This document shows, piece by piece, positions 1,008 to 64,000 of a stretch of DNA of 64,000 nucleotides. The notes beneath the pieces are model-generated. The model was given only the letters and a program-made list of their open reading frames with translations. It was not told the origin of the DNA and did no database searches. The DNA is taken from NCBI GenBank assembly GCA_963675295.2, contig CAXXKJ010000002.1, forward strand, positions 864,001 through 928,000. The letters are read 5' to 3'. This DNA is from a bacterium. GTDB taxonomy: Bacteria > Electryoneota > Electryoneia > Electryoneales > Electryoneaceae. The translations under genes and the position numbers were made by a program. Numbering within the stretch: position 1 is the stretch's first letter; every line of letters starts with the position of its first letter.

Positions 1008-1093
1008 AACAGAATCTTGCCCGTGTTGGTTTGTCCAATGCGGGTCATCCGAACCTTAAGCGGCATGGCGAATTGTTTTCGTCGTGCCGTTTT
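1008..1093 (+). repeat. Upstream element copy 1 (REP-like hairpin plus terminator-like hairpin), repeated at 2840-2926
   Basis: 1045-1093 is identical over 49 bp to 2878-2926. Contains the stem CGGCATGGCGAA/TTCGTCGTGCCG followed by a T-rich tract. Confidence 0.9.
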
Positions 1094-1156
1094 GTTTTGT
1101 CGGGAAATCGGAAATGCTTATCTTCTACTCAAATCGGATTGGATGTGGAGTCCCAA

Positions 1157-2827
1157 ATGAAGCGTATGTTGTTTTCCTCATGGATCGTTCTAACCATTTT
1201 GAGTTCAACTATCCTTGCTCAACCACCTTCTGTGGTTTGGGATCAAACTCTTCCGGCAGGTGGGGAAGCGAGCACGGTTCCCATCGAAGTCGTGACCTAC
1301 GGTGATGGAAGCTTTCGTCTTGTGGCCAGTCATTATGCCATGTGGGACGGATCTGCGATGCTGTACAAGCTCGCGGCGGACGGTTCCATTTTCGGAGTGC
1401 AGACCTATACAGGGTATTATGGCCATCAAACCCATTCGTTGGACGGACGCGTTGATCTCGGAGTGTTGTTGGTAACGTCGGTGCATGAAGAGTACAACGA
1501 AGGTCCAAATGACATTGTTACTGTGCGCCGTCTGGAAGAAAACACGATGGAAGACACATGGAACGGGTTAGGTTGTGCTGCACGATTTGATGAGTCGGGC
1601 GAAAACTATTACGTAGCACGTGGATACAAAGATAGCCATTTCGTTCCCGCTGACATCGGGATCTACCAGTATTCATCGAGTGACAACAGCGTTGTCCGTT
1701 CCCACGGCTACTCGGAAGTTGGCTATCCTAAGGATCTGGCTGTTCTAAGCGAAACTCGGATTTTCCTCGCTGAGCGAAACACCGTTGCCAGTATCGACCT
1801 GGTGAATGACGGCCATGTCCGTTGGACATATCCGATGGATGAGATTAAACGGGTGCATGCCACACCCGACAGCGGTTGTGTCGTATTCAACACCAACCGG
1901 ATTGATCGCCTGACGCGGTCTGGGCAGATGGTCTGGAGTTTTACTACACCTGTCTGGCACTTGAAGGATGTTGCCATTCAACCGACCGGCGCTGTCCTGT
2001 TTACTGGTAACAGCCCAGGGTATGGCGACGGTCTCGATTCACTGCTGGTTGGGGAACTCTCTTCGGATGGAACGCTGCTTTGGAATTGGCTCTCGCCGGA
2101 ACACCAATCCGGTATGGCAATCTCAGCAACGGAGGATGGTGGTTGTGTGATCGGGTACCTCTATGATCAATTCCCGTTTGATGGCCTCGCCGCTCTGCGT
2201 TTGCAGGGGAGGATTCAGTTAACCGCTACGCTCGAAGAACCGGTTTTCCTGCCTGCGGAAGGTGGAGAATTACACCTGGACGTAGAAGTGGAAGCCCGCA
2301 ATATCTCAGGCGCTCAGGGAACGTTTGTGCTGCAAGGCAAAAGCGCAGCGGCGGATCTGCCTGAATTGGAGCTTGAGGGACTAATCCATTCGGGAACGAA
2401 TATGTTTGAGGATGTTGTGTATCCGGTGCCAGAGGGGTATCCTTCTGGCCACTACCAGCTGGTTTCAACACTGAAGGTCAGCGGTTGGCAAACCAGCGAT
2501 TCCTCAGACTTTTACCTCGGAACGTCTGGTGTGGATGTTGAGTTACGCGCAATTGCGCCAGTCCAATTCCTGTTGCAACCCGTCTACCCCAACCCCTTCA
2601 ACTCCACGACGACAATCTCCTTCGACCTGAACCGCCCGACACCGGTCAACCTGTCCGTCTTCGACCTGCTCGGACGGGAGGTGACGGTGCTGAGTGACGG
2701 CCAGCCGTACGCGCCGGGATCGCACCGTGTGGTGTGGGACGCGTCCGGCCTGCCCGGCGGGACGTATTTCCTCCGCGCCCAGACCGATGACGAGCAGCAG
2801 GTGAGACGGATGCTGTTTCTGAAGTAA
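1157..2827 (+). CDS. Secreted beta-propeller-like protein with Ig-like domain and T9SS CTD
   Basis: ATG at 1157 follows GGAG and starts a signal peptide (MKRMLFSSW...ILA). C-terminus YPNPFN...GTYFLR...RRMLFLK. Confidence 0.8.
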   Translation: MKRMLFSSWIVLTILSSTILAQPPSVVWDQTLPAGGEASTVPIEVVTYGDGSFRLVASHYAMWDGSAMLYKLAADGSIFGVQTYTGYYGHQTHSLDGRVDLGVLLVTSVHEEYNEGPNDIVTVRRLEENTMEDTWNGLGCAARFDESGENYYVARGYKDSHFVPADIGIYQYSSSDNSVVRSHGYSEVGYPKDLAVLSETRIFLAERNTVASIDLVNDGHVRWTYPMDEIKRVHATPDSGCVVFNTNRIDRLTRSGQMVWSFTTPVWHLKDVAIQPTGAVLFTGNSPGYGDGLDSLLVGELSSDGTLLWNWLSPEHQSGMAISATEDGGCVIGYLYDQFPFDGLAALRLQGRIQLTATLEEPVFLPAEGGELHLDVEVEARNISGAQGTFVLQGKSAAADLPELELEGLIHSGTNMFEDVVYPVPEGYPSGHYQLVSTLKVSGWQTSDSSDFYLGTSGVDVELRAIAPVQFLLQPVYPNPFNSTTTISFDLNRPTPVNLSVFDLLGREVTVLSDGQPYAPGSHRVVWDASGLPGGTYFLRAQTDDEQQVRRMLFLK

Positions 2828-2830
2828 GGA
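2588..2830 (+). repeat. CTD-coding tail, near-identical to 4286-4528
   Basis: Alignment by eye; both proteins end with an almost identical ~78 aa. Confidence 0.9.
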
Positions 2831-2839
2831 GTAAGGACA

Positions 2840-2926
2840 AACAGAACTCTTGCCCGTTTTGGCTCGGCCAATGCGGATCATCCGAACCTTAAGCGGCATG
2901 GCGAATTGTTTTCGTCGTGCCGTTTT
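2840..2926 (+). repeat. Upstream element copy 2
   Basis: Aligns with 1008-1093. Confidence 0.9.
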
Positions 2927-2986
2927 CGTTTGATTCGAATCAGCTACGTTCTATCTTACGCTGTACCCAATGAATCGGAGGGGATC

Positions 2987-4525
2987 GTGAAATCTCATAT
3001 CACTTGGATATTACTCGTAGCACTCATCCTTTTGTCCAGTCCTGTCCTGCTTCTGGCGCAGTTGAACCGTAGTTGGGTTCATACCTATGGCCAGCCCAGC
3101 GAGGAATACCGCAACCAGTATTCTATCGAAGAGATTCAACCGGCACCCGGGGGCGGCTGGTACCTCGGCGTCAGTACGGTCCATTCCCAACGGCAGTCCT
3201 TTCAAGCCTGGCTTGAAAGCCGATTCCTCAGAACGCATTCGGATGGGGAAACCATCTGGGAATCCGTACAGAATGGAGAACACATCGCTTGCATGACAAC
3301 GCTCGCGGACAGTTCGTTAGGATACGGGTTGAATTCAGGATTTGATGCTCGTAGTGGATATGAAACCAACATCGTGATTGCACGTCACCTGGCCACCGGT
3401 GTACAGGCATGGACGACAAACGGGAATGTCCCATACGATATCAATCCCTGGTTGGGCGCGATGTGCGCACTTCCAGACGCAAATCACCCGGGGCCGGGCC
3501 TCAACCTGTTTGTCAGTTTCGCGATCGACAACGCGCCGTTCTACGACGAACCCTCCGACATCGATCTTCATTTCCGAAATTATGACGAAAGAGGACTCTA
3601 CCGTGAAACAACCCTCCATCTCGGCAATTGCGGCTCCACACATGCCCCCCGGGTCGTTCAGGATGCATTGAGGTTGCCCGAGGGTGATATTCTTGTATAC
3701 GCACGTGGTCGCAATTTTCCCGGCGAACCGACACCGGATTATATCTCAGATGATTTTCTGCTGCGATTGAATTCGGACTTGCAGATTGTGCGGGCCACGA
3801 AGATCCGCGAATTTAATCCCGATCACGATGTCAGTGGGTATGATATCCACATGCTGTTGACCCGGGACGGTTGCGTGATGGTGCAGTCGGGGCTGGGAAT
3901 CGGGAAGTACGCCACAAATGGACGGCTGGTCTGGTTCATGGAATATGCTGACTTTGAGCCGAGACGGGTTGCCCGGGAAACGGCGTCCTTGCCGGCCCTT
4001 CACTATTTCGTCGGCGCGCTGGATGATGACGACCACACCTCCTGCGTCGGCGCTATCGGCACGGATGGGGATCTGTATTTCCTCCAGCCCGTTCCGGAAG
4101 CAATTGAGCTGAATAGCCTTCAGGTGAAAGGGATCGGCAATCTTGTCGTAGGCGGAGCGACCCAAACCAATGACCCGTACGGCCGCGTATACGAGCAGGC
4201 TCTGCTGGTCAATTATGCAAACCCGTATGGCTTGCGGATTACACCAGAAGTTCAGCCAACCCGGCTATCCCTGCTGCCAGTGTCGCCGAACCCGTTCAAC
4301 CCGTCCACCACAATCTCCTTCGACCTCAACCGTCCGACACCTGTTAACCTGGCCGTCTTCGACCTGCTCGGGCGTGAGGTGACGGTGTTGAGTGACGGCC
4401 AGCCGTACGCGCCGGGTTCGCACCGTGTGGTGTGGGACGCGTCCGGCCTGCCCGGCGGGACGTATTTCCTCCTTGCCCAGACCGATGACGAGCAGCAGGT
4501 GAGACGGATGCTGTTTCTGAAGTAA
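2987..4525 (+). CDS. Secreted protein with T9SS CTD
   Basis: GTG at 2987 follows GGAGGGG and starts a signal peptide. C-terminus SPNPFN...RRMLFLK. Confidence 0.8.
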   Translation: MKSHITWILLVALILLSSPVLLLAQLNRSWVHTYGQPSEEYRNQYSIEEIQPAPGGGWYLGVSTVHSQRQSFQAWLESRFLRTHSDGETIWESVQNGEHIACMTTLADSSLGYGLNSGFDARSGYETNIVIARHLATGVQAWTTNGNVPYDINPWLGAMCALPDANHPGPGLNLFVSFAIDNAPFYDEPSDIDLHFRNYDERGLYRETTLHLGNCGSTHAPRVVQDALRLPEGDILVYARGRNFPGEPTPDYISDDFLLRLNSDLQIVRATKIREFNPDHDVSGYDIHMLLTRDGCVMVQSGLGIGKYATNGRLVWFMEYADFEPRRVARETASLPALHYFVGALDDDDHTSCVGAIGTDGDLYFLQPVPEAIELNSLQVKGIGNLVVGGATQTNDPYGRVYEQALLVNYANPYGLRITPEVQPTRLSLLPVSPNPFNPSTTISFDLNRPTPVNLAVFDLLGREVTVLSDGQPYAPGSHRVVWDASGLPGGTYFLLAQTDDEQQVRRMLFLK

Positions 4526-4528
4526 GGA
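4286..4528 (+). repeat. CTD-coding tail copy 2
   Basis: Aligns with 2588-2830. Confidence 0.9.
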
Positions 4529-5162: not shown

Positions 5163-7421
5163 ATGAAGATGACGACTATTGTACTTCTCACGATTGGTTT
5201 GTTGGCGGTCAGCGGCAACGCCAGTTCATTTGAGCCCGTAGCGATTGAACGGTCCAACTTCACGGTTCCCGTTGACGGAGACATGCCGGTCACGGACAGC
5301 AACATGACCTCTCCTTTCTTTGAAGGGTTTGAGAGTGGAGCGGCCGGGTGGAGTTTCTACGATGGCAACGGTGAGACGATCGGTTGGCAGGTGATCGAGG
5401 ATCCGGACCTCGCGTGGGCGGACGCCTGCTTCCTGGGTTTGGAGAATGCTGAGGCCAACACGGTGCTTTACGCCGAAAGCCCGGCATTCGACACCCCTAC
5501 GCTCGCCGCGGAAGAAACGATGTTCCTGGACGTGTACTTCGCCAATCTGTGGATGAACACGGACAACCTTGCGGAGAGCTTCTGGTGGCGTCCGGAGATT
5601 TACGATCCGAACACGGACACCTGGGGCCCGCTCGCGTCGCTACACAATGCTGTCTATACAGAGAGCAACGGTGGCGTCTGGGAATCCTTCAGCACCAGCG
5701 GCTACGCGTACGACTGGGACATGGAAGACTACCAGGGTCTGACGGGTGTCAAGGTACGCTTTGTGATCAACGTTCCGGCGGACGTGTCCGGATTCGACTT
5801 CATGCGTCTTGACAACGTGGAAGTTCTGCACAGGGCGTTGGATCATGATGTGTCGCCGGTACTGGAGATTCCGTACCCGACGGTTGTCGGCTATCCGGTG
5901 TTCGGTGAGGTGTACCTCTCGAACAATACCATGTACCCGGCGAGCAACGTCAGCGCGGCCTGGACCTTGAACGGTCAGTGGTGCAACCTGCTGCCGATGA
6001 GTCCGTACAACATGGACCCGTACCAGACGAGCCTGCTGTTCATCTCGGACCCGGTGGATCCGGACAATGTCGATTTCTGGCTGCCGACGACGGACGATAT
6101 CGGTGTCAACTACCTGACGGCGACGGCAGAGTATGCGGACGACGAAGATCCGACCAACAACATCTATCCGATGATCGTGAATGTGACCCCGGAAGGCCGT
6201 TTCGAACTTGGTGTCGATTCGCGCGGGTTCACGAGCAACTTGTCGGTGCCGACGTTGAATGATGGTCCGGTGGTTCACATCGATCCGCTCGAGATCAGCC
6301 CGGACTACTTCTACGGACAGAACTACGACATTTCGCAGATCCGTCTCTGGACCTATTTCCACCCGGCGGCTGGCGGTGCCCCGGCGAATGCCAGCATCAC
6401 CTTCCATGTCTACAGCGGTGGGGATACCCCCGGCCCGGAACTCTTCACCAGCGTGTACGAGTTCGATGTTGAGGAAGGGTATGTGGGCGACTACAGCGTG
6501 ATTGCGGACATCGGTGGTGTTGACGGTTCGCGTTGGATTGATGGCGATGTGTGGGTCTGGGCGGAAGTGACGTCGGAGGGCCAGAATGGTTATCCGCAGC
6601 CGTTCATCTACCAGACCCGTGCGGGCGACATGCAGCACAACCAGTTCGAGAACATGGCGGACGCCATGGCTGGTGCGAACTTGAGCGACTATGGTCATCA
6701 CCTGACGGCCACGATCATGCACGCCAGCGAGGAAGCGCCGGTAACCATGGAAGTGACTCCGTTGATCACCGAGATTCCCTGGTTTGGCGGGATTGTTTGC
6801 TACCAGCTGGAGATCGAGTCGCTGGTGGACTATTCGATTGAGGATGTGTGCTACTGGGTGGATGTGATCGGGCCGGAAGGTAACATTCAACAGAGCTATC
6901 GCACGGCGTACTTCACCTTGTTCCCGCACCGTCACATGTTCTTCGCCTGCATCATCAACGCGGTGCCGCTGTGGCTGCCGAACGGCGAGTACGAGTTCCA
7001 TGCGTACATTGGATCTCGGCCGAACTACTACGCCACCGGCATGTTCAACTTTACCAAGGGTGGCACCTGCGGCGACGGTCCGACGATTCAGGAAGGCGGG
7101 CACCAGGAGCTGAACATGGAAGCGGAAGTGATGATCGCTACCGCGGATCTGCCCCTGGAGTATGAGGTAAGCCAGGCCTACCCGAACCCGTTCAACCCGA
7201 CGACGTCGCTGGATATCAGCCTTCCGCAGGCGGGTGAATTGGAAGTGGCGATCTACAACGTGAATGGGCAGCAGGTGGATGTCGTGACGAAGGGTCAGTT
7301 CGAAGCCGGGCGTCACACGTTGACCATCGATGGCAGCCAGCTGGCGAGTGGTGTCTACTTTGTCCGCGCGACGGTTCCGGGCAAGATGACGGAGATGAGG
7401 AAGCTCGTCCTGATGAAGTGA
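5163..7421 (+). CDS. Secreted beta-sandwich protein (MAM/cleaved-adhesin-like N-terminus, Ig-like domains) with T9SS CTD
   Basis: RBS GAGGAGG and signal peptide; FEGFESG..GW..D.NG motif; C-terminus YPNPFN...SGVYFVR...RKLVLMK. Confidence 0.8.
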   Translation: MKMTTIVLLTIGLLAVSGNASSFEPVAIERSNFTVPVDGDMPVTDSNMTSPFFEGFESGAAGWSFYDGNGETIGWQVIEDPDLAWADACFLGLENAEANTVLYAESPAFDTPTLAAEETMFLDVYFANLWMNTDNLAESFWWRPEIYDPNTDTWGPLASLHNAVYTESNGGVWESFSTSGYAYDWDMEDYQGLTGVKVRFVINVPADVSGFDFMRLDNVEVLHRALDHDVSPVLEIPYPTVVGYPVFGEVYLSNNTMYPASNVSAAWTLNGQWCNLLPMSPYNMDPYQTSLLFISDPVDPDNVDFWLPTTDDIGVNYLTATAEYADDEDPTNNIYPMIVNVTPEGRFELGVDSRGFTSNLSVPTLNDGPVVHIDPLEISPDYFYGQNYDISQIRLWTYFHPAAGGAPANASITFHVYSGGDTPGPELFTSVYEFDVEEGYVGDYSVIADIGGVDGSRWIDGDVWVWAEVTSEGQNGYPQPFIYQTRAGDMQHNQFENMADAMAGANLSDYGHHLTATIMHASEEAPVTMEVTPLITEIPWFGGIVCYQLEIESLVDYSIEDVCYWVDVIGPEGNIQQSYRTAYFTLFPHRHMFFACIINAVPLWLPNGEYEFHAYIGSRPNYYATGMFNFTKGGTCGDGPTIQEGGHQELNMEAEVMIATADLPLEYEVSQAYPNPFNPTTSLDISLPQAGELEVAIYNVNGQQVDVVTKGQFEAGRHTLTIDGSQLASGVYFVRATVPGKMTEMRKLVLMK

Positions 7422-7462
7422 GTCAGCTCACAAAATCCTGATGCAAACAGTAGTAAACATAT

Positions 7463-7497
7463 CCCGGTCCGGGCAAAGCGCCCGGGCCGGGTTTTTA
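7463..7497 (+). terminator. Intrinsic terminator
   Basis: CCCGGTCCGGGC/GCCCGGGCCGGG stem followed by TTTTT. Confidence 0.75.
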
Positions 7498-7578: not shown

Positions 7579-7705
7579 TCCGCTAACTGTTCAAACTGGA
7601 AAAATACTAAGATGTTGGAATCAATAGAAATGGAAGTTCTCGCACATTCTTGTGACAGATTTAGCAAACCGTAAACTGACGATACAACCTTGGGGGGAAG
7701 AAAAG

Positions 7706-10420
7706 ATGAGAGTGAAAACGGGTTTGGTTCTGGCCCTGGCATTGATCCTGAGCGTCTGGACCTTGGCAGCACACGCGGACATCGTGATCACGGAGATCAT
7801 GATCGATCCGCACGAAGTAAGCGATGGATATGGGGAGTGGTTTGAAGTGTATAACACCGGCACCGAAGATGTTGACATGTCCGGTTGGACCATTACCGAC
7901 GCTGATGGACAGTCGCATACGATCGGATCGCTGGTTGTTCCGGCGGGTGAGTATGGCTTGCTGGTTGAGACGGCGAACTCCAGCTGGAATGGCGGTGTTA
8001 GTGGCTACGACTACCATTATTCCGGTCATACCTTCGACAACACTGCGGACGAATTGTACCTGCGGAACAGCAGTGATGAGTTGATGGACGCGGTAGAGTG
8101 GGACATCAATGCGGATTGGTATGTGTGTCCAGGTACGACCGTGATCCTGTATGATATGGACACAGATAACAACGATCCGGCGAACTGGGGCCTCTCAACC
8201 GTGGCATGGCCGGGTAGCGATGAGGATTTCGGTTCTCCAGGTTACGAAAACGAAGAAGCCAGGGACGAACCGGTTGTCGTCATCAGCGAGATCATGTTCG
8301 ACCCACACGCTGTCAGTGACGGCTATGGTGAATGGTTTGAGCTGTACAACGCTGAAGACGATACGATCAACGTTCGTCTCTACACTTTCTCCGATCTGGG
8401 TGGTCAATCCTTTTTCATCGGAAACAACCTCTTCATTCCACCTAATGAACATGTTGTTCTGGTAGAAACGCCGAACTCTGACATCAACGGTGGTGTCATC
8501 GAGGATTATAGCTACAGCAGCTTCCTGTTGGATAACGAAGCGGATGAGATCATCCTCACCGGGATGTATGGCAATGTTGTGGACGAAGTTCACTACGACA
8601 TGGCCAACGGGTTTCCGCCTGCGGAAGGCGCGTCCATGACCCTTCCGAATCTCGAAGCGGACAACAATATCGGAGCGAACTGGGGGATTTCGACGGTCGT
8701 GTGGCAGGGCAGTGAGGGCGACTTTGGATCACCGAGTGAAGAAAATGAAGGTCCATATGTCCTACCCAACATTGTCATCTCCGAGATCATGTACGATCCC
8801 TTCGAGGTCATTGATGGCTACGGTGAATGGTTCGAGGTGACGAATCTTGGCGCACAAGCGGTCAACCTTCGCATGTGGACATTCAGCGATACCAGTGGTC
8901 AGACGTTCATGCCAGCGACAGATGTTTATGTCGAACCCGGCGATTATGTTGTCTTTGCGGAGACGGGGAATAGTTCGTACAACGGTGGTGTTAACGATGA
9001 TTTTGATTATGACGGCATGTATCTGACGAATGAAGCGGATCAGATCATTGTGCGCGACATGTACCACGATGTGATTGATGAAGTTTGGTATGATGAAGCC
9101 AACACCTTCCCGAGCGCATACGGTGCTTCGATCTATCTGCCAGATTTAGAAGCGGACAACAACGTCGGAACCAACTGGCTGATCTCGACGCTAGTCTGGC
9201 CGGGAGGTGACGGCGACTTCGGATCGCCGGGCGAACTAAACCAGGAGATCCCGGCACCGACACAGGTAAAGATCACGGAAATCATGAAGAATCCGGCCGC
9301 AGTCATTGATGGCTACGGTGAGTGGTTCGAGCTGGTCAACGAAGGCGATGAAGCGATCAATCTGCGTCTCTGGGATTTCTACGATGCGGGCGATGATTTC
9401 TTCACCGTCACTGCGCAACTGGTCCTGGAGCCAGGTGACTACGCCGTGCTCGCTGAGACGGGCAACTACAGTCTGAACGGCCATGTCGTTGATGATTACG
9501 ATTACAATAACATGGATCTCGACAACGGCGACGATGAGATCATCGCCCGCGATATTCACGGTGTTGTGCAGGATCAGATCTACTACCTCGTCGATGGCAA
9601 CTGGCCGGATCCGGAAGGTGCGACGATGACCTTGCCCGACCCGCGACTCGACAACCAGGATCCGCTGAACTGGGTGATCTCGGAGGAACCGTGGGGCGGC
9701 AGCGAGGGCGATTTCGGCTCGCCCAACTGGCCGATGCATCGCGGCATTCTGACGCTGACTCCGACGCAGACAGTGATTCCGGCCGGCGGCGGCAACCTGC
9801 AGTATGGCATTGATCTGGTGACGTACTTGTATGTTCCGTACGAAAACTGCGCGTTCTGGACGGAAGCGGTGATGCCGGACTCGACGGTGTACCCGATTGG
9901 CAACCAGTACTTCACACTGGCGCCGTTCCTCGCGGTGACGATGCCCAACCAGGTGCAGCCGGTTCCCGGCGGGGCGCCCGAAGGGGACTACACCTTCAAC
10001 GCGTACATTGGTTACCCGGAAACACACATCATCGACAGCTTCGAGTTCACCAAGCTCGGAAGTACGGGTGAATCGTTCGGACCGGAAGACTGGCTGGCCG
10101 CCAATCCGTTCACAACCCCGGATGAGGCAGCCGCGAACGTATCCACGATGCCGAACGACTACGCTGTCGGCAACGCGTACCCGAACCCGTTCAACCCGAC
10201 GACGTCGCTGGACATCAGCCTGCCGCAGGCGGGTGAACTGAACGTGTCAGTGTACAATGTGACCGGTCAGTTGGTATCAACGGTTGCCAGCGGGACGTTC
10301 CCGGCTGGCCGTCACACCCTGACTGTGAACGGCAGCCAGTTGGCGAGTGGTGTCTACTTTGTCCGTGCGACGGTTCCGGGCAAGATGACGGAGATGAGGA
10401 AACTCGTCCTGATGAAGTGA
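7706..10420 (+). CDS. Lamin-tail-domain repeat protein (4 LTD) with Ig-like domain and T9SS CTD
   Basis: Signal peptide from ATG 7706; four I(T/S)EIM.(D/N)P...GEWFE.N...GSP repeats; CTD. Confidence 0.85.
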   Translation: MRVKTGLVLALALILSVWTLAAHADIVITEIMIDPHEVSDGYGEWFEVYNTGTEDVDMSGWTITDADGQSHTIGSLVVPAGEYGLLVETANSSWNGGVSGYDYHYSGHTFDNTADELYLRNSSDELMDAVEWDINADWYVCPGTTVILYDMDTDNNDPANWGLSTVAWPGSDEDFGSPGYENEEARDEPVVVISEIMFDPHAVSDGYGEWFELYNAEDDTINVRLYTFSDLGGQSFFIGNNLFIPPNEHVVLVETPNSDINGGVIEDYSYSSFLLDNEADEIILTGMYGNVVDEVHYDMANGFPPAEGASMTLPNLEADNNIGANWGISTVVWQGSEGDFGSPSEENEGPYVLPNIVISEIMYDPFEVIDGYGEWFEVTNLGAQAVNLRMWTFSDTSGQTFMPATDVYVEPGDYVVFAETGNSSYNGGVNDDFDYDGMYLTNEADQIIVRDMYHDVIDEVWYDEANTFPSAYGASIYLPDLEADNNVGTNWLISTLVWPGGDGDFGSPGELNQEIPAPTQVKITEIMKNPAAVIDGYGEWFELVNEGDEAINLRLWDFYDAGDDFFTVTAQLVLEPGDYAVLAETGNYSLNGHVVDDYDYNNMDLDNGDDEIIARDIHGVVQDQIYYLVDGNWPDPEGATMTLPDPRLDNQDPLNWVISEEPWGGSEGDFGSPNWPMHRGILTLTPTQTVIPAGGGNLQYGIDLVTYLYVPYENCAFWTEAVMPDSTVYPIGNQYFTLAPFLAVTMPNQVQPVPGGAPEGDYTFNAYIGYPETHIIDSFEFTKLGSTGESFGPEDWLAANPFTTPDEAAANVSTMPNDYAVGNAYPNPFNPTTSLDISLPQAGELNVSVYNVTGQLVSTVASGTFPAGRHTLTVNGSQLASGVYFVRATVPGKMTEMRKLVLMK

Positions 10421-10460
10421 GTTAGCTCACACAAGATTCGTACAAAAAGTTGTATACATC

Positions 10461-10493
10461 AGCCAGTCCGGAGATTTCTCTGGGCTGGCTTTC
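10461..10493 (+). terminator. Intrinsic terminator
   Basis: AGCCAGTCCGGAG/CTCTGGGCTGGCT stem followed by a short T tract. Confidence 0.7.
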
Positions 10494-10551
10494 TATTTCG
10501 GTATGGGCGAAGTCTCCGAGTCAAGTTTATAAGAGATTTTCGGAAATCCCG

Positions 10552-10580
10552 TTGATTTCTGGTTTTTCAGATATTATCCT
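10552..10580 (+). promoter_or_regulatory. sigma70-type promoter TTGATT-N17-TATCCT
   Basis: Spacer counted; conserved with 14557-14585. Confidence 0.55.
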
Positions 10581-10711
10581 TAAAAAACTATATACTGTTA
10601 CTTGCTATGTGAAGTAAGTACTTGATTATTATAAAACAAGGAGCAGGCAGAAACGTTTGAGATAAAAGTCACAAAGAGTACAACGTCATACAACCTTGGG
10701 GGGTTAAGGAA

Positions 10712-13700
10712 ATGAAGGGCATGAAATGGATGGTGGTGCTGGCAGCAATCTTTACACTGCTGGCCGGTGCTGCACAGGCAGATGTCATGATCACAGAGGT
10801 CATGATCAACCCGCTCGCGTCAGGCGACAACTACGGCGAGTGGTTCGAAGTGTACAATGACGGCGCGGAAGACGTCGACATGAGCGGCTGGACGGTTGAG
10901 GACAACGATGGCCAATCGTTCGTGATCTCAGCGTTTACGGTGCCCGCAGGTGACTACGCGGTTTTCGCGAAGTACAATAATGATGGGCTCAACGGGCACG
11001 TACCGTACGACTACAGCTATAATTCGGCGATGAATTTCGATGAGCCGGCGGACGAACTGATGATGTACGACGCCGAAGACAATTTGATGGATCAAGTTAC
11101 TTATGACAGTGGCAACGGCTGGGTGTACGTCGAAGGCGCATCGATTCAGTTGACGGATCTCGGTTCTGACAATAACGATCCGGCGAACTGGATAGTTTCG
11201 GAATACGGCTGGTATGAAGGCAACTGGGACTTTGGCACGCCAGGCATGGCATTCGACGGCCCGTATGCGACGAAGCACATGGTCATCAGCGAGATTCTGT
11301 ATGATCCGTTCTCCAGAGAGGACCAGTACGCGGAATGGTTCGAGGTGCACAACGCGGGTACGGACACGACGAACATGCGCTTGTGGACATTTGAGGATCT
11401 GGGTGGCAACTCATTCAGGGTCAATGCTCACATTCTGGTCGCGCCGGGAGAGTACGCTGTGTTTGGCCGTTACGACAACAACGGCTACAACGGGTACATC
11501 TATCCGGACTATGTGTACGGTGGGGATTTTCCGCTTGATAACCAGGCCGATGAAATCGTCATGCACAGGCCTGACGGAACGTTGCATGACGAGGTGCAGT
11601 ACGACGAATCGATGGGCTGGCCGACAGCCTGGGGCGCCAGCATGCAGTTGATGGACGTCAATGCGGACAACAGCGTCGCGTCCAACTGGACGATCTCCCG
11701 CTACGTCTGGCCGAGTAGCAACGGCGATTTCGGCACGCCGCATGAAGCGTTTGACGGACCGTACGATCCACACAACCTGATCATCAGTGAAATCCTTTAC
11801 GATCCAAACGCGACCGGTGATCAGTATGGTGAGTTCTTCGAAGTCTACAACGCAGGCGATGGTCCGACGGATCTGCGGTTGTGGACGGTGAAGGATGCCG
11901 ATTCCGATTCGTTCGCGGTGGCGGCCAGTGTGACGGTGCAACCGGGTGAGTACAAGGTCTTGGGCCGCTACGGCAACGAAGGCTACAACGGCAACATCGA
12001 CGATGACTATAACTACAACGGCGCGATGGTGATGGACGACGACGCCGACGAGGTCATGCTGTATGATCCGAACAGCCAGTTGCATGACATGGTTGCGTAC
12101 GATGAAGGCAGCGGTTGGCCGACAGCGTCCGGCGCGAGTATGCAGCTGACGGATCTGAACGATGACAACAACGATCCGGCGAGCTGGGTGATTTCGCGGA
12201 ACCCGTGGCCCGGCAGCCCGGGGGACTTCGGCACGCCGCACGATCCGTTTGATGGTCCGTACTACGATCATCACATGGTGATTACGGAAATCATGTACGA
12301 TCCGTATGTGTCTGCGGACAACCATGGGGAGTACTTCGAGCTGTACAACGCCGGTCAGGGACCGACCGACATCCGCCTTTGGGAAATCACCAGCGGAGAT
12401 GAACACTACCGGATTCAGTCCAGTGTCATCGCGCAGCCGGGTGAGTACCTCGTGCTCGGTATTTACGGCAACGAGGGCTACAACGGCCACATCAACGACG
12501 ATCTCGATTACGACAACGTCACGTTGAGCAATGTCGCGGACACGTTGACCATCATCGACCCGTACGGTGAAATTCACGACCAGGTGATGTACGATGAGGA
12601 AAATGGCTGGCCGAAACCGTTCGGCGCGAGTCTGCAGTTAACTGACCCGTTAGCGGACAACAGCGATCCGGCGAACTGGTACGCGGCGATGTGGCCGTGG
12701 CCGGACAGTGACGGCGACCTTGGCACGCCGGGCGTCGCCAATGACGGCCCGTACGCTGAAACACAGATCATCATCAGCGAAATCATGTACAACCCGCTGG
12801 CGGTGTCGGATCAATACGGTGAGTGGTTCGAGTTGCACAACGCCGGTACGGACACGGTCAACCTGAAGTATTGGATGTTCTACGACAACGATGCCGACAG
12901 CTTCTTTCCGACCAGCCAACAGTATGTCGCTCCGGGCGAAGAACTGGTGTTCGGGCGTTATGCAAACCCCGGGTACAACGGCAATGTCGTGGTGAACTTT
13001 GACTACGACAACTTCGTCTTCGATCATGACACCGACGAGATTTACATGTACGACGGCAACGGTGTTCTGATCGATGAAGTCGAGTATGACCTCACTGGCG
13101 ACTTTCCGAGTACCGAAGGCGCGTCGATTTACCTGGCGGACCTGAACACGGACAACAATGTCGGATCGAACTGGTACATCTCGACGATTGCCTGGCCGGG
13201 CAGTGTCGGCGATTTCGGTTCACCAGGTGAAGAAAACCAGGACATACCGGCTCCGTACCAGATCAAGATCACCGAGATCATGAAGGATCCGGCTGCCAGT
13301 TCTGACATTTACGGCGAGTGGTTTGAGATCGTCAACGAGAGCGACGAGCAAATCAACCTCCGTCTGTGGGAGTTCTACGACAACGACACGGATTATTTCC
13401 GGATTACCGACAATGTGTTTGTCGAGGCCGGTGATTATTGCGTGCTCGCGCGCTACGGCAACTATGGCTACAACGGTGGTGTCCAGGACGACTACAACTA
13501 CAATGGTCAGATGATCCTGGACAACGACGAGGACGATGAGATCATCATCCGCGACCTGTTCGGTGAGGTTCAGGACGAAGTCTGGTATCTGGAAGACGGC
13601 ATCTGGCCGGATCCGACCGGTGCGACGATGACGTTGCCGGATCCGCGTCTGCAGAACGACGACCCGGCGAACTGGGTTGTCTCGGAGAAGGCCTGGGGCG

Positions 13701-14422: not shown

Positions 14423-14462
14423 GTTAGCTAGCTCGATACTTGCACAGATATGCAAACATGAT

Positions 14463-14495
14463 AGCCAGTCCGGCTAAGCTACCGGACTGGCTTTT
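14463..14495 (+). terminator. Intrinsic terminator
   Basis: AGCCAGTCCGG/CCGGACTGGCT stem followed by TTT. Confidence 0.75.
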
Positions 14496-47063: not shown

Positions 47064-47083
47064 GAACGTACAATGCTATCCAG

Positions 47084-51221: not shown

Positions 51222-51255
51222 GGGATAACACGACACGGAACTGTCGTGGAACGCA

Positions 51256-51286
51256 AAAGCCGCGTCTGGATACCAGGCGCGGCTTT
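51256..51286. terminator. Bidirectional terminator
   Basis: AAAGCCGCGTCTGG/CCAGGCGCGGCTTT between convergent genes. Confidence 0.7.
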
Positions 51287-51335
51287 GCTGTCTGAATTAA
51301 CCACGGAATATGCGGAAGAAACAATGACCAACGGA

Positions 51336-52460: not shown

Positions 52461-53608
52461 GGGTCCATCTCCTCACGCACGATGACCACCTGCCCATCGG
52501 TCAGGCTGGACGCGGTCATGTAGTAGGCCAGCTGGATCAGGTTGTCGTCGAGCACGGCCACATCCAGCGGTGTGGGAGTCTGGTGCGGGAAGGACTCGCC
52601 GTATGCACGTGTCCACAACACATTACCGGACGCATCGAACCTGAACAGCTTGATCGGATTCGCTTCCGCGACCAGTGTAAGCAGGAAAAGGCCGCCGTCA
52701 TCCCCGGATTCGATCCTCGCCTGCAAGGAGAAAATGCCGGAGAAGACATGGTCCCAAGCGATTGAACCGTCAGCGTTCCACACAACCAACAGTTGTTCAG
52801 GCAGGTTCTGGCCACCAGCTCTCACACTCCGAACAGCAAATCCACCGTTTGTCAGCGCGACGAATTGACGGGCGAGCGTGATGAAACCGGGATCGGTCAA
52901 AGGGATCGTATGCTGCTCAGAACCATCAGCCGAGATGACGCGAATCCCGGTGATGGAATAGGCGTCAGGATCTGGAACGGGATCATTACCCGTCCCGGCC
53001 TGCAGCAACAGTGCGATGTCGCCGTTCGGCATCAGGGCCGCGCCGACAGCGAGTTCGTGCGGCTCGCGCTCGAAGCTGGTCGACCACAGGGTGACACCGA
53101 GCGCGTTGACGGCGGTGACGTGGATCAGTGTGTCCTCGACGCCATCGTGTCCAGCGAAAATGACGCTGCCGTCCGGGCGGGGGAGTGTGGAGGTCGCCGG
53201 GATATCGAGCAGCCAGTCAACGCCGCCTTCGGAATTGTACTTGACCGGCATCGGCGTGCCGGAACCGACGCAGCCATAGTCAACCGTCGCGTGGATATCG
53301 CTTGCGATGAAGTCCTCGCCGTCCGTTTCGAACAGGGTCTGCCCGTATGGCGAGAGCCGAATGACGTTGATGCCGTAATTCTCCGCCGGACTCGCGCCGA
53401 AGAGGGTTGTCCCGAGAATGAAGACATCTCCGCCGGGGGACGTGTCCGCGGTAAAGACCTGCGGATAGTCCAGCGTATCCGAGACGAACACGCCGGCGTC
53501 GGGCAATGGATCGTCGACCGTTCGTACAACATCGCCGTCTTCACATCCGGCCAGCAGGATAAGGGTGGAAAGCATAACGGATAGCAGAATGACAAACCGT
53601 GCGCGCAT
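52457..53608 (-). CDS. Lipoprotein, beta-propeller-like (probable paralog of 51336-52460)
   Basis: Lipobox LAGC; ATGA coupling; shared RPDG/RDDG..I.A and H(V/L)TAV....LW motifs. Confidence 0.65.
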   Translation of the reverse strand: MRARFVILLSVMLSTLILLAGCEDGDVVRTVDDPLPDAGVFVSDTLDYPQVFTADTSPGGDVFILGTTLFGASPAENYGINVIRLSPYGQTLFETDGEDFIASDIHATVDYGCVGSGTPMPVKYNSEGGVDWLLDIPATSTLPRPDGSVIFAGHDGVEDTLIHVTAVNALGVTLWSTSFEREPHELAVGAALMPNGDIALLLQAGTGNDPVPDPDAYSITGIRVISADGSEQHTIPLTDPGFITLARQFVALTNGGFAVRSVRAGGQNLPEQLLVVWNADGSIAWDHVFSGIFSLQARIESGDDGGLFLLTLVAEANPIKLFRFDASGNVLWTRAYGESFPHQTPTPLDVAVLDDNLIQLAYYMTASSLTDGQVVIVREEMDP

Positions 53609-53694
53609 GATGCCCCCCAGAATGCGATGATACCCACACATTGATAGCTACAATAACCTACACTCGGGGGTGTGGATGTCGCAAGGAATGGGGA

Positions 53695-56370: not shown

Positions 56371-56480
56371 CCCGCGTTGTCCGAAGCCAACACGGGCAAG
56401 AATCACTGTTTTACCGACCACCGATTACCGACTTACCGACTACCGGCCATTGTTTTACCGACCACCGATCACCGACAACC
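56371..56480 (-). repeat. TCTTG-tagged hairpin (56371-56401) plus ACCGA-containing heptamer tandem array
   Basis: Seen directly; the same combination occurs at 42333-42545. Confidence 0.7.
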
Positions 56481-61755: not shown

Positions 61756-61783
61756 TCAGAGTACAACTGAACGCAAAACAAAG

Positions 61784-61858
61784 CAGGGACACGTTGTCCT
61801 CAAAGTGTCCCTGATGAAGTGAAATGCCGGGGACACTTAACGGAGTAAGTGTCCCCGG
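61784..61858. repeat. Two GGGACAC-type REP-like palindromes (61784-61813 and 61827-61858)
   Basis: Match 43655-43686 and 18036-18065 respectively. Confidence 0.8.
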
Positions 61859-61921
61859 TTCTGTTGTTCTTTTCCTATCTTTTCCTATCCTTTGCTTTCT
61901 CTTACTGTCCGTTCCTATCCG

Positions 61922-64000
61922 TTACTTCAACAACACCAGCTTCTGCATCCGTGTCATCCCACCGGGCTGATTGACACGCAGGAAGTACATCCCGCTCGCC
62001 AGCCTGGAGGCGTCCACGGTCAACGTGTGCCGTCCCGGGCTGAACGGTTTATCGGCAAGAGTTATCACCTCACGCCCGAGGATGTCGAACACCTGCGCCT
62101 TGAGGTGTGTCCGTTGCGGCAGATCCACTTTGATGGTGGTGGTTGCATTGAAAGGGTTCGGGTAGGCCTGATGCAGCGTCCACTGGTCCGGGGTGGTGGC
62201 GGACGGTTCGTCGACACCCATGAATCCGTCGTTCAGACGTTGCGCCCACAGGCTGGCAGCGGATTCCGGTAAAACTTCATCCGCGTATTCCTGCCACCAG
62301 GTGTACGCTCCACCTTCGCCGTCGGAGCCAAGCGTGAGGTCGTTGGTCCAGCCTCGGGTTTCGATAATCGGCACCGGGCCGTCGATGTACTGCACGGGGA
62401 AGGTGCCCTGCTGGGTGATTCGCCGATAGACGAGAAAGCGGTCGTAATCGACGTGCTGGAACCAGGCCACGTACAGCGAATTGTCGGGCAGCACCATGGC
62501 GCCGTTTCGCTGCAGGTCAGCGTGAAAACCCGGATTGGAAAGCTCTGCGCCTGTCAACGGGAACAACTGCGGAACGCCGGAGAGGTCGAACTGCTGCGCG
62601 AACACACCGCTGAAATCATCCCGGGCGGTGTAGGCAAGCCAGAACAGGTTCTCGCCACATGGCTGCAACGCGAGATCGTCCGTTGTCGACCAATCGATCG
62701 GTAGATCGATCAACTCCTGCGGCACATCCCCCCACAGCAGGTCGCCGTCCGGATTGATCAATTGTCCGTGAATCGCACCTCTTGGATCGTCATTGCTCGA
62801 ATACGTCATGCACACGAGCAAGTTGCCGTCGAACACCATCGTTGACGGCCGCGAGTAGTCGTCAATAGCGATGGGAAGGTCTTCGTCCCACAGCAACTCA
62901 CCGTCTCCGGACAGTCGTTTCACGTAGTAGTCGCCTTGGCTCCAGCCCCTGATGGACAGGATCATCATGCTGCCATCGTCCAGCATTTCGACGGTCACGA
63001 AATCGTCGTCGTCGCTGCCGGCACCGAGGCTGAGCGGAATGAAATCAGCGTTGCCCTGCGACCACATCGGCTCGCCGTTCGCGTTGAACCGTTGCGCCCC
63101 GATATTCTGGCACCAGTCAGCGTTGTAGTATGTGAAGATGACAATGCAGCCGCCATCCGGCAGGCCGTAAAGGGCTTCGTTCGCATTCAAATAATACAGT
63201 GCGGGATCGAACAGGACTCCCTGATCGCCCCAAAGCAAATCTCCGTCCGGCGTCACTTTCTGCAGCACCACACCGTCGTATTCGTCGACACCGTACGTTG
63301 AGATCGTTGCGGATACAATCAGGTTGTCGTCGCCAGCGGCATCGATAAACACTTCGCCCAAGTAGGTAGTTAACGTGTCGTCGCCGACGAAGGGATAGCC
63401 GGGCAGCAGCGGAATTCCCCACTGTCCAAGGGTTTGTTCGCCGGTCAATGGATCGAGGGATTGCATCACCAGCATCCGTCCGAACGGATTGATGCGATAA
63501 TCCGACCAGGCCCAGTACGGAGTGGCATCAATCAACGCCAGCGAGGCTTCTGTGGCGGACCCCGATTCGCCGTCATTGAGCGTCAGCCCGTTGACCGGTG
63601 TTTCTAGAAGGTGGTTCACAACATCGAAAGAATGGAACCGGATTCGTGCGTGACCGTCTGAATGGTAATGCGAGAGTACGACACGGCCGGCATCGGATTG
63701 CGCCATGGCAATGGTATTGACGTAGCCATCAGGTTCAAGGTAGGTCGTCTCTGCGACGATGTCGCCGTTAACATCGACCTGTGTCAGAACCTGATCTTCG
63801 TGGTAGTCCCCTGTGATAATCACCGCGCCGCCGAAACCGTCCCCCAGGGCGTACAGGGTGTAGTCATAATCATCGCCGATGGTGACACCATTACCCCAGT
63901 ACGTTTCGAGGCTGGTCTCACCGCCGAAGCGTTGCGCGTTCAGGTGTTCCACCTGGTTTTCACTCCACAGGCAGATGGCGGAGTGGTCGTCGGACGGAAT
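61922..64000 (-). CDS. Large secreted repeat protein with T9SS CTD, paralog of 43712-46696 (5' partial)
   Basis: Frame is open to the window end; AQRFGGETSLETYW aligns with AQRIGGRDSLEVFW; VVLQKV...G..LW; C-terminus YPNPFN...KLVLLK. Confidence 0.8.
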   Translation of the reverse strand: MPSDDHSAICLWSENQVEHLNAQRFGGETSLETYWGNGVTIGDDYDYTLYALGDGFGGAVIITGDYHEDQVLTQVDVNGDIVAETTYLEPDGYVNTIAMAQSDAGRVVLSHYHSDGHARIRFHSFDVVNHLLETPVNGLTLNDGESGSATEASLALIDATPYWAWSDYRINPFGRMLVMQSLDPLTGEQTLGQWGIPLLPGYPFVGDDTLTTYLGEVFIDAAGDDNLIVSATISTYGVDEYDGVVLQKVTPDGDLLWGDQGVLFDPALYYLNANEALYGLPDGGCIVIFTYYNADWCQNIGAQRFNANGEPMWSQGNADFIPLSLGAGSDDDDFVTVEMLDDGSMMILSIRGWSQGDYYVKRLSGDGELLWDEDLPIAIDDYSRPSTMVFDGNLLVCMTYSSNDDPRGAIHGQLINPDGDLLWGDVPQELIDLPIDWSTTDDLALQPCGENLFWLAYTARDDFSGVFAQQFDLSGVPQLFPLTGAELSNPGFHADLQRNGAMVLPDNSLYVAWFQHVDYDRFLVYRRITQQGTFPVQYIDGPVPIIETRGWTNDLTLGSDGEGGAYTWWQEYADEVLPESAASLWAQRLNDGFMGVDEPSATTPDQWTLHQAYPNPFNATTTIKVDLPQRTHLKAQVFDILGREVITLADKPFSPGRHTLTVDASRLASGMYFLRVNQPGGMTRMQKLVLLK

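Follow-up and report, generated by a model that had tools for sequence, protein, structure and literature searches.

Within the window, a 64,000-nt stretch of DNA from an uncultured bacterium, the CTD-coding ends of T9SS cargo genes carry patches of recent shared ancestry limited to the CTD, with a partner switch at both CTD borders of one gene and compositional steps at the CTD start. The probable explanation is gene conversion of the RecA type and unequal crossing-over within conserved CTD and leader DNA, superimposed on tandem duplication. According to this reading, tandemly duplicated cargo genes flank porU-porV, and their CTD-coding ends, about 85 codons long, would recombine between neighbours, as would a 92-nt upstream leader in two pairs. 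The mechanism would be ordinary homologous recombination, with RecA dependence assumed, and the exchange tracts would begin and end at the CTD and leader borders because only those stretches retain enough DNA identity. Homogenisation of this kind would keep the tags matched to the resident PorV and PorU.

As for its content, the window encodes PorU, PorV and 12 cargo genes with type-A CTDs; adding PorU, whose C-terminal end is itself CTD-like, returns the 13 CTD genes around porU-porV counted in the earlier, sequence-only reading. TIGR04183 reached its 23-bit cut-off in 12 of the 12 cargo genes tested, and PF18962 exceeded its 27-bit cut-off in ten, with g2906 (25.4) and g33328 (23.9) below it. 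An HMM trained on the CTDs of this window gave 11 strong matches, plus PorU and g33328, and nothing else in the window at E<1; the exact PNPFN-coding motif occurs at 11 sites against 0.48 expected. These CTDs are nearest to those of Rhodothermales, Ignavibacteria and Calditrichota-type genomes, and every lamin-tail domain (LTD) gene bears one. The secretion genes, and the cargo genes that enter the argument least, are:

28029-31973, plus strand: porU (NF033707, 708 bits, cut-off 420; Peptidase_C25)
32031-33098, plus strand: porV-family gene (NF033709, 270 bits, cut-off 90; PF19572)
33328-36651, plus strand: g33328, relative of M6-like inactivated metalloproteases with a weak type-A CTD (NF052323, 435 bits, below the 600-bit cut-off; TIGR04183, 27.5 bits)
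18172-21138, plus strand: g18172 and g19624, paralogous cargo genes (39% amino acid identity) with unconverted CTDs (65% nucleotide identity)
61922-64000, minus strand: g61922, cargo gene running off the window, with a CTD; distant paralog of g43712 (26% over 626 aa)

Regarding the exchange tracts, the clearest case lies in an array of LTD genes, preceded by a cargo gene of another kind:

5163-7421, plus strand: g5163, cargo gene with a body of unassigned family and a CTD 80% DNA-identical to that of g7652
7652-10420, plus strand: g7652, four LTDs (206 bits) and CTD
10712-14422, plus strand: g10712, six LTDs and CTD, the latter coinciding with a conversion tract at about 14137-14420
14713-17934, plus strand: g14440, five LTDs and CTD; translation probably begins at the ATG at 14713 rather than the TTG at 14440

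The first unit of this tandem array is g7652, and the repeat unit is about 4 kb (9106-11270 matches 13102-15268 at 70%). The bodies of g10712 and g14440 are paralogs (47-52% amino acid identity, dS 1.93), whereas their CTDs are 100% identical as protein and 94% as DNA (14151-14420 versus 17663-17932), with a dS of 0.30-0.36. Upstream of nt 14136/7, 211 informative sites of g10712 are g7652-like versus 63 g14440-like; in the CTD almost all are g14440-like, and past the stop codon they are g7652-like again. The switch at 14136/7 has a MaxChi of 81, reached in 0 of 1000 permutations. In g7652/g10712 the order is inverted, the last 150 codons before the CTD having a lower dS (0.78) than the CTD (1.22). 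The g5163/g7652 tract (7176-7472 versus 10175-10471) is 80% identical, and reaches 97% in the alignment window that covers roughly the final 90 nt of g5163; these bodies are alignable only over a 110-aa stretch before the CTD, at 30%. Overall, CTD identity in the window pairs is 94-100% at bodies that are 52% identical or unalignable, their CTD dS values are 0.28, 0.30 and 0.59, and five of the 11 strong CTD genes are free of conversion. Tract ends vary by tens of nucleotides and mark no fixed site. Judged from the sequence, the CTD-limited tracts are recombination patches rather than the outcome of slow divergence; a dS of about 0.3 makes the exchange events old.

The second case is a gene pair in which both the leader and the CTD are shared:

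1008-1099, plus strand: upstream element, copy A, 91% identical to 2840-2932
1157-2827, plus strand: g1004, signal peptide, 470-aa low-GC3 body and type-A CTD (2567-2827; TIGR04183, 37.6 bits)
2840-2932, plus strand: upstream element, copy B, starting 13 nt past the g1004 stop, ahead of g2906
2987-4525, plus strand: g2906 (protein P0043), signal peptide, 425-aa body and CTD (4268-4525)

Copy A, 58-149 nt upstream of the g1004 start, holds a REP-like hairpin (1016-1044) and a terminator-like one (1058-1092, stem of 15 pairs, followed by a T run), and folds at -46.2 kcal/mol (z -7.2). The CTD tracts (2588-2830 versus 4286-4528) share 92.6% DNA identity, with a dS of 0.28, while the bodies give no BLASTP match at 1e-3 and an hhalign probability of 3%. 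No relative of the g1004 body was found, since g1004 alone covers it among 38 matches; below 1e-10 the only match among 1.84 billion representatives is g1004 itself. The neighbour g2906 has an ortholog in another assembly (P0006, 80% identical over 97% of the length) and a paralog in the same genome (P0007) with the same CTD subtype; its body-CTD junction is not an assembly artefact, because it is seen in both independent assemblies. Near-identical CTDs on unrelated bodies, as the sequence-only reading had described for neighbouring genes, are thus fully borne out for g1004/g2906 and mostly for g5163/g7652, the other neighbours being paralogs.

Base composition changes at the same border. The best GC3 changepoint lies seven codons before PNPF in g1004 (nt 2567, 0.53 to 0.87), six in g2906 (0.60 to 0.82) and seven in g43712 (0.48 to 0.75), each reached in 0 of 500 permutations; steps at this position occur in three of the 11 window genes. 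The related features are:

21150-24385, no strand: AT-rich island 1 by composition (GC 0.29-0.51), with g21276 (minus), g22622 (minus) and most of g23257 (plus)
43615-43656, minus strand: orphan CTD tail, 13 codons and a stop (AGSTVSQKIVVLK, then stop; DNA-HMM match, E 0.013)
43657-43684, no strand: perfect palindrome GGGGACACATTG-AGGA-CAATGTGTCCCC, separating the orphan tail from the g43712 stop
43712-46708, minus strand: g43712, AT-rich body (GC3 0.48) and GC-rich CTD (43712-43993, GC3 0.75)
46846-46937, minus strand: g43712 upstream element, 90% identical to 49675-49767
47084-49510, minus strand: g47084, CotH, LTD and CTD
49675-49767, minus strand: g47084 upstream element, where AT-rich island 2 (about 43993-49800) ends on the right

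The right edge of island 1 falls inside g23257, 144 codons before its stop (nt 24385; GC3 0.30 to 0.70, 0 of 500 permutations). The abrupt fusion of AT-rich bodies to GC-rich tails holds for g1004, g2906 and g43712, but not for g47084, AT-rich throughout including its CTD, which is unconverted (32-40% amino acid identity to the others). Both duplicated upstream elements reported earlier were recovered, the g43712/g47084 one with no further copy within the window, and so was the orphan tail adjoining the palindrome; the tail ends in STVSQKIVVLK before its stop, resembles the final codons of the g43712 CTD, and, with ten gene ends, makes up the 11 matches of a C-terminal motif (shuffles, mean 0.01). 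P0088, the best homologue of g43712, matches its body at 30% and its CTD at 62% identity, and the homologues of g43712 bear CTDs; the g43712 CTD is of the family-native subtype, and the donor must therefore be an unseen GC-rich relative.

For calibration, 38 multi-CTD loci from other phyla were used, with 122 within-locus CTD pairs and 133 genes for GC3. CTD DNA identity reached at least 80% in seven of the 122 pairs, in three of the 38 loci, at bodies 24-64% identical in amino acids. The identity profiles examined, for six of these pairs, stay high over the whole CTD and drop off at the stop codon; in four (L050, L030) the increase coincides with the CTD start, whereas the two L003 pairs are highly similar before it is reached. 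In the six-gene array L050 the body data reject the clade defined by CTD DNA (99/99 support; p-AU 0.0013). Together with the partner switch of g10712, this confirms the predicted incongruence of passenger and CTD trees, and GC3 changepoints, tract ends and the switch cluster at the module border, as had also been foreseen. The results support CTD borders as recombination breakpoints and differing histories of passenger and CTD. Among the 133 control genes, one has a significant GC3 step no more than 10 codons from the CTD start (Fisher p 0.0013 versus the window), and two have a CTD-minus-body GC3 difference above 0.2, versus four of 11 window genes (p 0.00027). Conversion alone is insufficient for the GC3 steps because converted control pairs have no consistent rise in CTD GC3; an origin of the body in lower-GC DNA would be needed in addition, and at least one junction (g1004, perhaps g43712) may unite a resident CTD with a low-GC3 body that is diverged or foreign. 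Finally, over the last 50 CTD residues, within-genome pairs agree at 49 and 48 positions and cross-genome pairs, orthologs included, at 45-46; of the informative sites, three support a by-genome grouping, one follows orthology and one the remaining arrangement, so that a signal of three sites suggests grouping by genome rather than by ortholog.

It is possible, if doubtful, that leader and CTD act as 5' and 3' homology arms by which unrelated or horizontally acquired passengers are exchanged or grafted as a regular route of cargo diversification. The g1004/g2906 bodies are flanked by a leader (91%) and a CTD (92.6%) similarly diverged, consistent with a single event; searches of 5.8 billion and of 1.84 billion proteins gave no ortholog of the g1004 body, unlike that of its neighbour g2906; on a contig of a relative, P0044 joins another body to the g1004/g2906 CTD subtype, and this subtype (71-87% amino acid identity) recurs on at least five bodies, 389-470 aa long, that cannot be aligned with one another; island 2 runs from a CTD start to an upstream element; and the orphan tail resembles a displaced older gene end. 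However, unrelated bodies occur in none of the seven high-identity control pairs, and the g1004/g2906 bodies may be very diverged propeller-type homologues (in a repeat HMM g23257, g1004, P0006 and g2906 scored just above all 180 shuffles, at only 5-11 bits). Moreover, passengers with traceable ancestry come from families already bearing CTDs, and the events therefore look like CTD-to-CTD conversion, that is, homogenisation. Passenger replacement proper is plausible for g1004/g2906 alone, where conserved leader and CTD flank an unalignable body. Of the proposal that CTD DNA anchors recombination, the border breakpoints stand, while neither a dedicated diversification system nor the capture of CTD-less passengers is supported; the pattern is tidy and real, and explicable by ordinary recombination.

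Tandem duplication followed by fast body divergence (diversifying or relaxed selection) under strong purifying selection on the CTD, with no recombination at all, is improbable. Duplication is evident in the LTD array, and unconverted homologues have CTDs of 55-62% identity at bodies of 30-32%, or 90% at 78%; the constant tail on a variable body is partly plain selection, because CTDs evolve about two times slower than bodies without any conversion, which inflates the impression of constancy. Yet selection at the protein level cannot keep synonymous sites from changing (CTD dS 0.3 versus body 1.9), and the switch at both g10712 CTD borders, GC3 steps inside single genes and the AU rejection of a shared tree in L050 all argue against it. 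A switch driven by a dedicated enzyme (site-specific recombinase, REP/RAYT (HUH) transposase or diversity-generating retroelement) is still less probable: palindromes lie at several CTD gene ends and the g1004/g2906 leader includes a REP-like hairpin family (CTTGCCCGTGTTG...CAAYGCGGG) with four occurrences against 0.00 expected, but, as first noted, no recombinase is visible: among 41 ORFs (Pfam) and 31 proteins (NCBIfam; 20 + 11) none matched a family of recombinases, transposases, RAYTs or reverse transcriptases, a scan of the window alone in a 4.5-Mb genome that could encode the enzyme elsewhere. Inverted repeats numbered only four pairs, and none of them brackets a cargo gene; no inverted-repeat switch, tRNA or flanking direct repeats were found in the window, and the scatter of tract ends does not fit one fixed site. 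The joining of contigs of different organisms at conserved CTD sequence is the least credible, for although the GC3 steps coincide with a conserved motif, the CTD copies are 92-94% and not 100% identical, each island would need two misjoins, the contig bearing g1004 is 4.54 Mb long, and a second, independent assembly has the g2906 junction as well.

Homologous recombination of this kind has several parallels. Bacterial paralogs such as tufA/tufB, rRNA operons and PE/PPE genes evolve in concert by gene conversion, with similar patches of low synonymous divergence, sequences clustering within genomes instead of with their orthologs, and tracts bounded by the divergence around them; unlike the tufA/tufB type, conversion here affects a single domain in multidomain genes that have diverged elsewhere. 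Polymorphic toxin loci (Rhs, CDI) exchange C-terminal tips and keep orphan cassettes, the constant part being the homology anchor; a variable part exchanged on a constant anchor and a displaced remnant downstream are common to both, whereas in the window the polarity is reversed, immunity genes are absent, the variable parts are not toxins, and a single 13-codon remnant takes the place of an orphan-module array. In type V autotransporters, passengers are shuffled on a conserved C-terminal translocator, as in Ag43, where variable N-terminal passengers likewise have a different history from the export module (PMC10058404); secretion system and module differ, and the Ag43 account in that article does not describe CTD-limited conversion tracts between neighbours. 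A further parallel is the T9SS cargo of Porphyromonas gingivalis, where gene conversion and rearranged domains are described for RgpA, Kgp and HagA (Dashper et al. 2017, PMC5266723); modules of these conserved-CTD genes recombine between paralogs and alleles by homologous recombination, and the variants conflict with the strain phylogeny. What is shuffled there, within a single species, are adhesin modules (CAD, DUF2436) of related gingipain and HagA genes, whereas in the window the exchanged unit is the CTD itself with the 5' leader, between neighbouring and sometimes unalignable genes, and this pattern of CTD exchange is found in several environmental phyla.

Regarding the secretion machinery, porU and a porV-family gene occupy the centre of the window, which has a GC content of ~58%, and 12 genes carrying a type-A CTD, the C-terminal T9SS export tag, are distributed on either side of them:

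28029-31973: porU (NF033707, 708 bits, cut-off 420)
32031-33098: porV-family gene (family model NF033709, 270 bits, cut-off 90)

On the PorV equivalog NF033710, the latter gene scored 200.9 bits, under the 250-bit cut-off. As for the cargo genes, named here by ORF position, TIGR04183 recognized 12 of 12 with 26.1-43.1 bits (cut-off 23), and PF18962 exceeded its 27-bit cut-off in 10 of the 12. An HMM built from the window CTDs gave 11 strong matches plus PorU and g33328, with no other at E<1 among six-frame segments of at least 30 aa; the PNPFN-coding DNA motif occurred in exact form in the 11 strong-CTD genes only, with 0.48 matches expected. The 13 CTD-bearing genes counted in an earlier, sequence-only reading correspond to the 12 type-A cargo genes and the CTD-like end of PorU itself. 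Judged by eye, N-termini are hydrophobic in g1004, g2906, g5163, g7652, g10712, g14440, g18172, g33328 and g43712; g19624 and g47084 are ambiguous, and g61922 is truncated at the window edge. For four genes the longest ORF probably begins too early; paralog alignment and signal peptides suggest true starts at ~7706 (g7652, ORF 7652), ~14713 (g14440, ORF 14440), ~18262 (g18172, ORF 18172) and ~46696 (g43712, ORF 46708).

The near-identical CTD DNA that the sequence-only reading had reported in neighbouring genes was recovered by self-BLASTN in three pairs:

2588-2830 and 4286-4528: g1004/g2906, 92.6% identity, similarity restricted to the CTD
14151-14420 and 17663-17932: g10712/g14440, 94% identity, similarity restricted to the CTD
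7176-7472 and 10175-10471: g5163/g7652, 80% identity, similarity restricted to the CTD but patchy, reaching 97% in the alignment window of approximately the last 90 nt of the gene

The remaining CTD pairs of the window have 53-75% DNA identity. In the tracts, identity climbs within 0-46 nt before the PNPFN codons and drops at the stop codon, or ~50 nt past it in g5163/g7652. The CTDs of g10712 and g14440 differ at 16 of 267 nucleotides and at none of 89 residues (dS 0.30), those of g1004 and g2906 at 20 of 240 nucleotides and 5 of 80 residues (dS 0.28); overall, synonymous divergence is 0.28-0.36 in the CTD tracts versus 1.4-1.9 in the bodies, the remainder of the cargo proteins, reaching 1.93 for the g10712/g14440 bodies. 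Such synonymous values point to recent shared ancestry of these CTD pairs, not to constraint.

The gene g10712 changes partner along its length. On the 5′ side of nt 14136/7, 211 informative sites are g7652-like versus 63 that are g14440-like; in the CTD nearly all are g14440-like, and past the stop they are g7652-like again. The switch has a MaxChi of 81, a value matched in 0 of 1000 permutations, and the 150 pre-CTD codons of g7652 and g10712 (dS 0.78) are closer than their CTDs (dS 1.22). The switch, the switch-back and the low CTD dS together identify a conversion patch, both ends of which coincide with the CTD. Of the 16 differences, all synonymous, that separate the CTD of g10712 from that of g14440, nearly all are A/T in g10712 and G/C in g14440; CTD GC3 is 0.77 in the former versus 0.85 in the latter.

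Constraint does have a part in the general pattern, and comparisons with proteins from beyond the window provide the calibration. Body and CTD identities were 78% and 90% for g2906 against its ortholog from another assembly (P0006), 32% and 55% against its same-genome paralog (P0007), and 30% (266/882) and 62% (50/81) for g43712 against its best homologue (P0088). CTDs evolve more slowly than bodies even without conversion, and therefore not every constant tail denotes recombination. The window pairs lie far off this calibration line, with CTD identities of 94-100% next to bodies that either share 52% identity or do not align. Of the final 50 CTD residues, 49 and 48 are shared in the two within-genome pairs and 45-46 in cross-genome pairs, orthologs included; of the few CTD sites available, at the protein level only, three support grouping by genome, one supports orthology and one a third arrangement, and this by-genome grouping suggests, on few sites, concerted evolution. 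The g1004/g2906 CTD subtype (...FDLLGREVTVL...WDASGLPGGTYFLRA.TEDEQ..RRM.FLK) recurs across at least three assemblies in the proteins P0044, on the same contig as P0006, and P0045 and P0046, from other genomes, with 71-87% aa identity to g1004. The bodies of these three proteins, g1004 and g2906 are 389-470 aa long and mutually unalignable by BLASTP and hhalign, with similar size and N-terminal pattern.

Control loci from other genomes were collected by a CTD-alignment search of genome contigs, which gave 80 loci, the best only 52% identical, so that neither the source genome nor its relative belongs to the collection. Among 122 within-locus CTD gene pairs from 38 of them, 7 had at least 80% CTD DNA identity and 5 at least 90%; all were confined to one locus each from Rhodothermales (L003), Delongbacteria (L050) and Ignavibacteria (L030). 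In all seven the bodies are related but far more diverged (24-64% aa), and none has unrelated bodies. Six of the seven were examined and keep an identity of at least 0.9 through the CTD, with a drop at the stop; in the four L050/L030 pairs identity rises from ~0.45 at the CTD start, and the two L003 pairs have high identity even 5′ of the CTD, one of them from ~380 nt before. L050 (3602-16959 of OY760505.1, a Candidatus Delongbacteria MAG) contains six tandem cargo paralogs of ~725 aa, and its adjacent genes combine CTDs of 79-93% DNA identity with bodies of 23-35% aa identity; CTD-limited conversion is seen more cleanly in this natural array than in the window. Its body data reject the pair that the CTD DNA supports at 99/99 (p-AU 0.0013), so that the incongruence between passenger and CTD that the sequence-only reading had proposed to look for is present both here and between the g10712 tract and its flanks.

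As for the bodies, they were compared by BLASTP at 1e-3 after the last 85 residues were cut off. This linked g7652, g10712 and g14440 as lamin-tail domain (LTD) repeat proteins (42-54% aa), g18172 with g19624 (39%), and g43712 with g61922 (26% over 626 aa); g5163 aligns with the LTD genes only in a pre-CTD stretch of 110-116 aa, at 30-33%. In addition, 9106-11270 and 13102-15268 are 70% identical and mark a tandem repeat unit of ~4 kb, intergenic DNA included. With these links and this unit, most neighbours are ordinary tandem paralogs, and the unrelated N-terminal bodies of the sequence-only reading are retained in full for g1004 and g2906 alone, the only genes without a detectable body relative within the window (BLASTP; hhalign probability for the pair 3%). 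The highest hhalign probability among 21 body pairs was 19%, and a propeller-repeat HMM gave 5-11 bits only; taken together, BLASTP, hhalign and this HMM neither show nor exclude distant homology of the bodies. Among 38 matches to g1004, only g1004 itself covers the body, the others covering 14-26%, that is, the CTD; against 1.84 billion representatives only the self match fell below 1e-10, and the other 23 matches were weak and of repeat type. The g2906 ortholog P0006 lies on a 74-kb contig from another assembly and is 80% identical over 97% of the length; the body-CTD junction of g2906 is therefore real. A search of genome contigs with g2906 gave no match.

Base composition is stepped inside some of these genes. 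The best single GC3 changepoint falls 7 codons before PNPF in g1004 (0.53 to 0.87), 6 in g2906 (0.60 to 0.82) and 7 in g43712 (0.48 to 0.75), each with 0 of 500 permutations; the CTD values of the three match those of the window housekeeping genes (0.75-0.86), and the atypical part is the body. The proposed fusion of AT-rich bodies to GC-rich tails thus holds for these three genes but not for g47084, which is AT-rich throughout, CTD included, and so retains its own tag. The controls were 147 CTD-terminal ORFs in the 80 loci, 133 of which were analysed after exclusion of 14 with no Met or with <150 codons from the first Met to the CTD. Their CTD-minus-body GC3 averaged +0.02 and exceeded 0.2 in 2 of 133 (in none of the 71 whose loci have a GC of at least 0.5) versus 4 of 11 in the window (Fisher p 0.00027). 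A significant changepoint was present in 20 of the 133 control genes and lay no more than 10 codons from the CTD start in 1 of them, versus 3 of 11 window genes (p 0.0013). GC-biased conversion alone was rejected as an explanation of the steps, as the converted L050 and L003 CTDs have no consistent GC3 rise. No direct or inverted repeats >10 nt flank the two AT-rich islands (21150-24385 and about 43993-49800).

The sharpest GC3 step, 0.30 to 0.70 at nt 24385, belongs to the CTD-less g23257 and falls where its C-terminal Ig-like region begins. This gene (23257-24819, plus strand) combines a lipoprotein-like signal with an AT-rich, propeller-like body, and it represents a second kind of module-border mosaic; its GC-rich tail was considered as a CTD tail and rejected, since Pfam, NCBIfam and the window-CTD HMM found no CTD. 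A palindrome, CCACGGACT-GA-AGTCCGTGG (24809-24828), spans its stop codon.

The duplicated upstream elements of the sequence-only reading are two pairs. The first, 1008-1099 and 2840-2932 (91% identity), lies 5′ of where g1004 and g2906 really start (1157 and 2987, respectively), and each copy contains two hairpins, of which the second is terminator-like, with a 15-pair stem and a T run behind it; the second pair, 46846-46937 and 49675-49767 (90% identity), lies 138-257 nt 5′ of g43712 and g47084. Neither type has further full copies within the window. A REP-like hairpin family, CTTGCCCGTGTTG-loop-CAAYGCGGG, has four copies (0.00 expected), each 3′ of a same-strand gene, and a looser relative at 33134, after porV. 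These copies, together with the palindrome and the adjoining orphan CTD tail, both as the sequence-only reading had them, are as follows:

1016-1044, plus strand: REP-like hairpin, within a g1004/g2906 upstream element
2849-2877, plus strand: REP-like hairpin, within a g1004/g2906 upstream element
42333-42361, minus strand: REP-like hairpin
56371-56400, minus strand: REP-like hairpin
43657-43684: perfect palindrome with a 12-bp stem, 27 nt past the g43712 stop
43615-43656, minus strand: orphan CTD tail of 13 codons, AGSTVSQKIVVLK and stop, directly after the palindrome

The orphan tail was detected by a DNA HMM, with no signal from the protein HMM (frames of at least 30 aa) or the PNPFN motif, and it resembles the end of g43712 itself (TSVATRKLVVLK and stop). 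In six frames of the window the C-terminal motif has 11 matches, namely 10 cargo gene ends and the orphan, against a mean of 0.01 in 100 shuffles; in the control loci, 4 of 73 matches are in frames <70 codons, two of them (L059, L079) internal to the locus. We infer that the orphan tail was left as a scar when the 3′ end of the gene was replaced at an earlier time. Stems of the form GGGGACA...TGTCCCC occur in both hairpins that follow g47084 and g43712 (46950-47083 and 43657-43684, minus strand), so that these two genes of the second AT-rich island may have one terminator type.

The evidence fits ordinary homologous recombination between cargo genes. Such recombination would act only where diverged cargo genes still share similarity, and its outcome would be concerted evolution of the CTDs and mosaic genes. 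Passenger replacement between leader and CTD arms may have occurred in addition, with g1004/g2906, and perhaps the second AT-rich island, as candidates. A broader proposal is that CTD-coding DNA and short conserved 5′ leaders serve as portable homology arms across T9SS-bearing phyla, allowing whole-passenger replacement and providing horizontally acquired low-GC cargo with resident CTDs; we regard it as tentative and rather improbable. Finally, a dedicated system for the diversification that the sequence-only reading proposed is neither required by the evidence nor encoded in the window, where homologous recombination suffices: as that reading had itself noted for recombinases, no recombinase, transposase or reverse transcriptase family was found in 41 ORFs (Pfam) or 31 proteins (NCBIfam), tRNA and Rfam searches gave 0 matches each, and the window has neither the recombinase, reverse transcriptase or RAYT nor the flanking inverted repeats of a shufflon, invertible switch, DGR or REP-RAYT system.

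Regarding known systems, PMC5266723 describes T9SS cargo, the gingipains and HagA of P. gingivalis, that has undergone gene conversion and rearrangement of domains, and PMC10058404 describes the shuffling of autotransporter passengers on conserved translocators. No description of CTD-limited conversion outside P. gingivalis was found in the full-text literature, whose coverage leaves out most subscription journals. Homology arms at the CTD would have the reverse polarity of polymorphic toxins; unlike the cassette loci of the latter, with orphan-module arrays, immunity genes and a conserved pre-module motif, the window has one 13-codon remnant only, and no immunity-like small genes follow its cargo genes.

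If the homology-arm proposal is true, cargo repertoires would diversify via cassette exchange, with orphan CTD tails as scars. If CTDs are routinely homogenized within a genome, CTD trees and subtypes would report recent recombination and not cargo-gene history, and this homogenization would explain the compatibility of diverged or foreign cargo with the resident PorV and PorU. Steps in GC3 or in identity at the PNPFN codons, together with orphan tails, are a candidate genomic marker of recent cargo turnover.

Two further regions deserve mention. Downstream of porV, 33328-41766 (plus strand) comprises four genes, which encode an M6-like metalloprotease relative, inactivated (NF052323 435 bits, under cut-off), a PD40/TolB-like protein of 1053 aa whose end is Omp85-like, and two DUF5683 proteins; it may be a conserved T9SS-linked gene block. 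The minus-strand ORFs of 49746-53641 form a block of four without annotation; one of them, g52457 (52457-53641, minus strand), has no Pfam or NCBIfam match and is, like the 7-bladed P0008, a propeller-repeat protein (tblastn E 7e-10).
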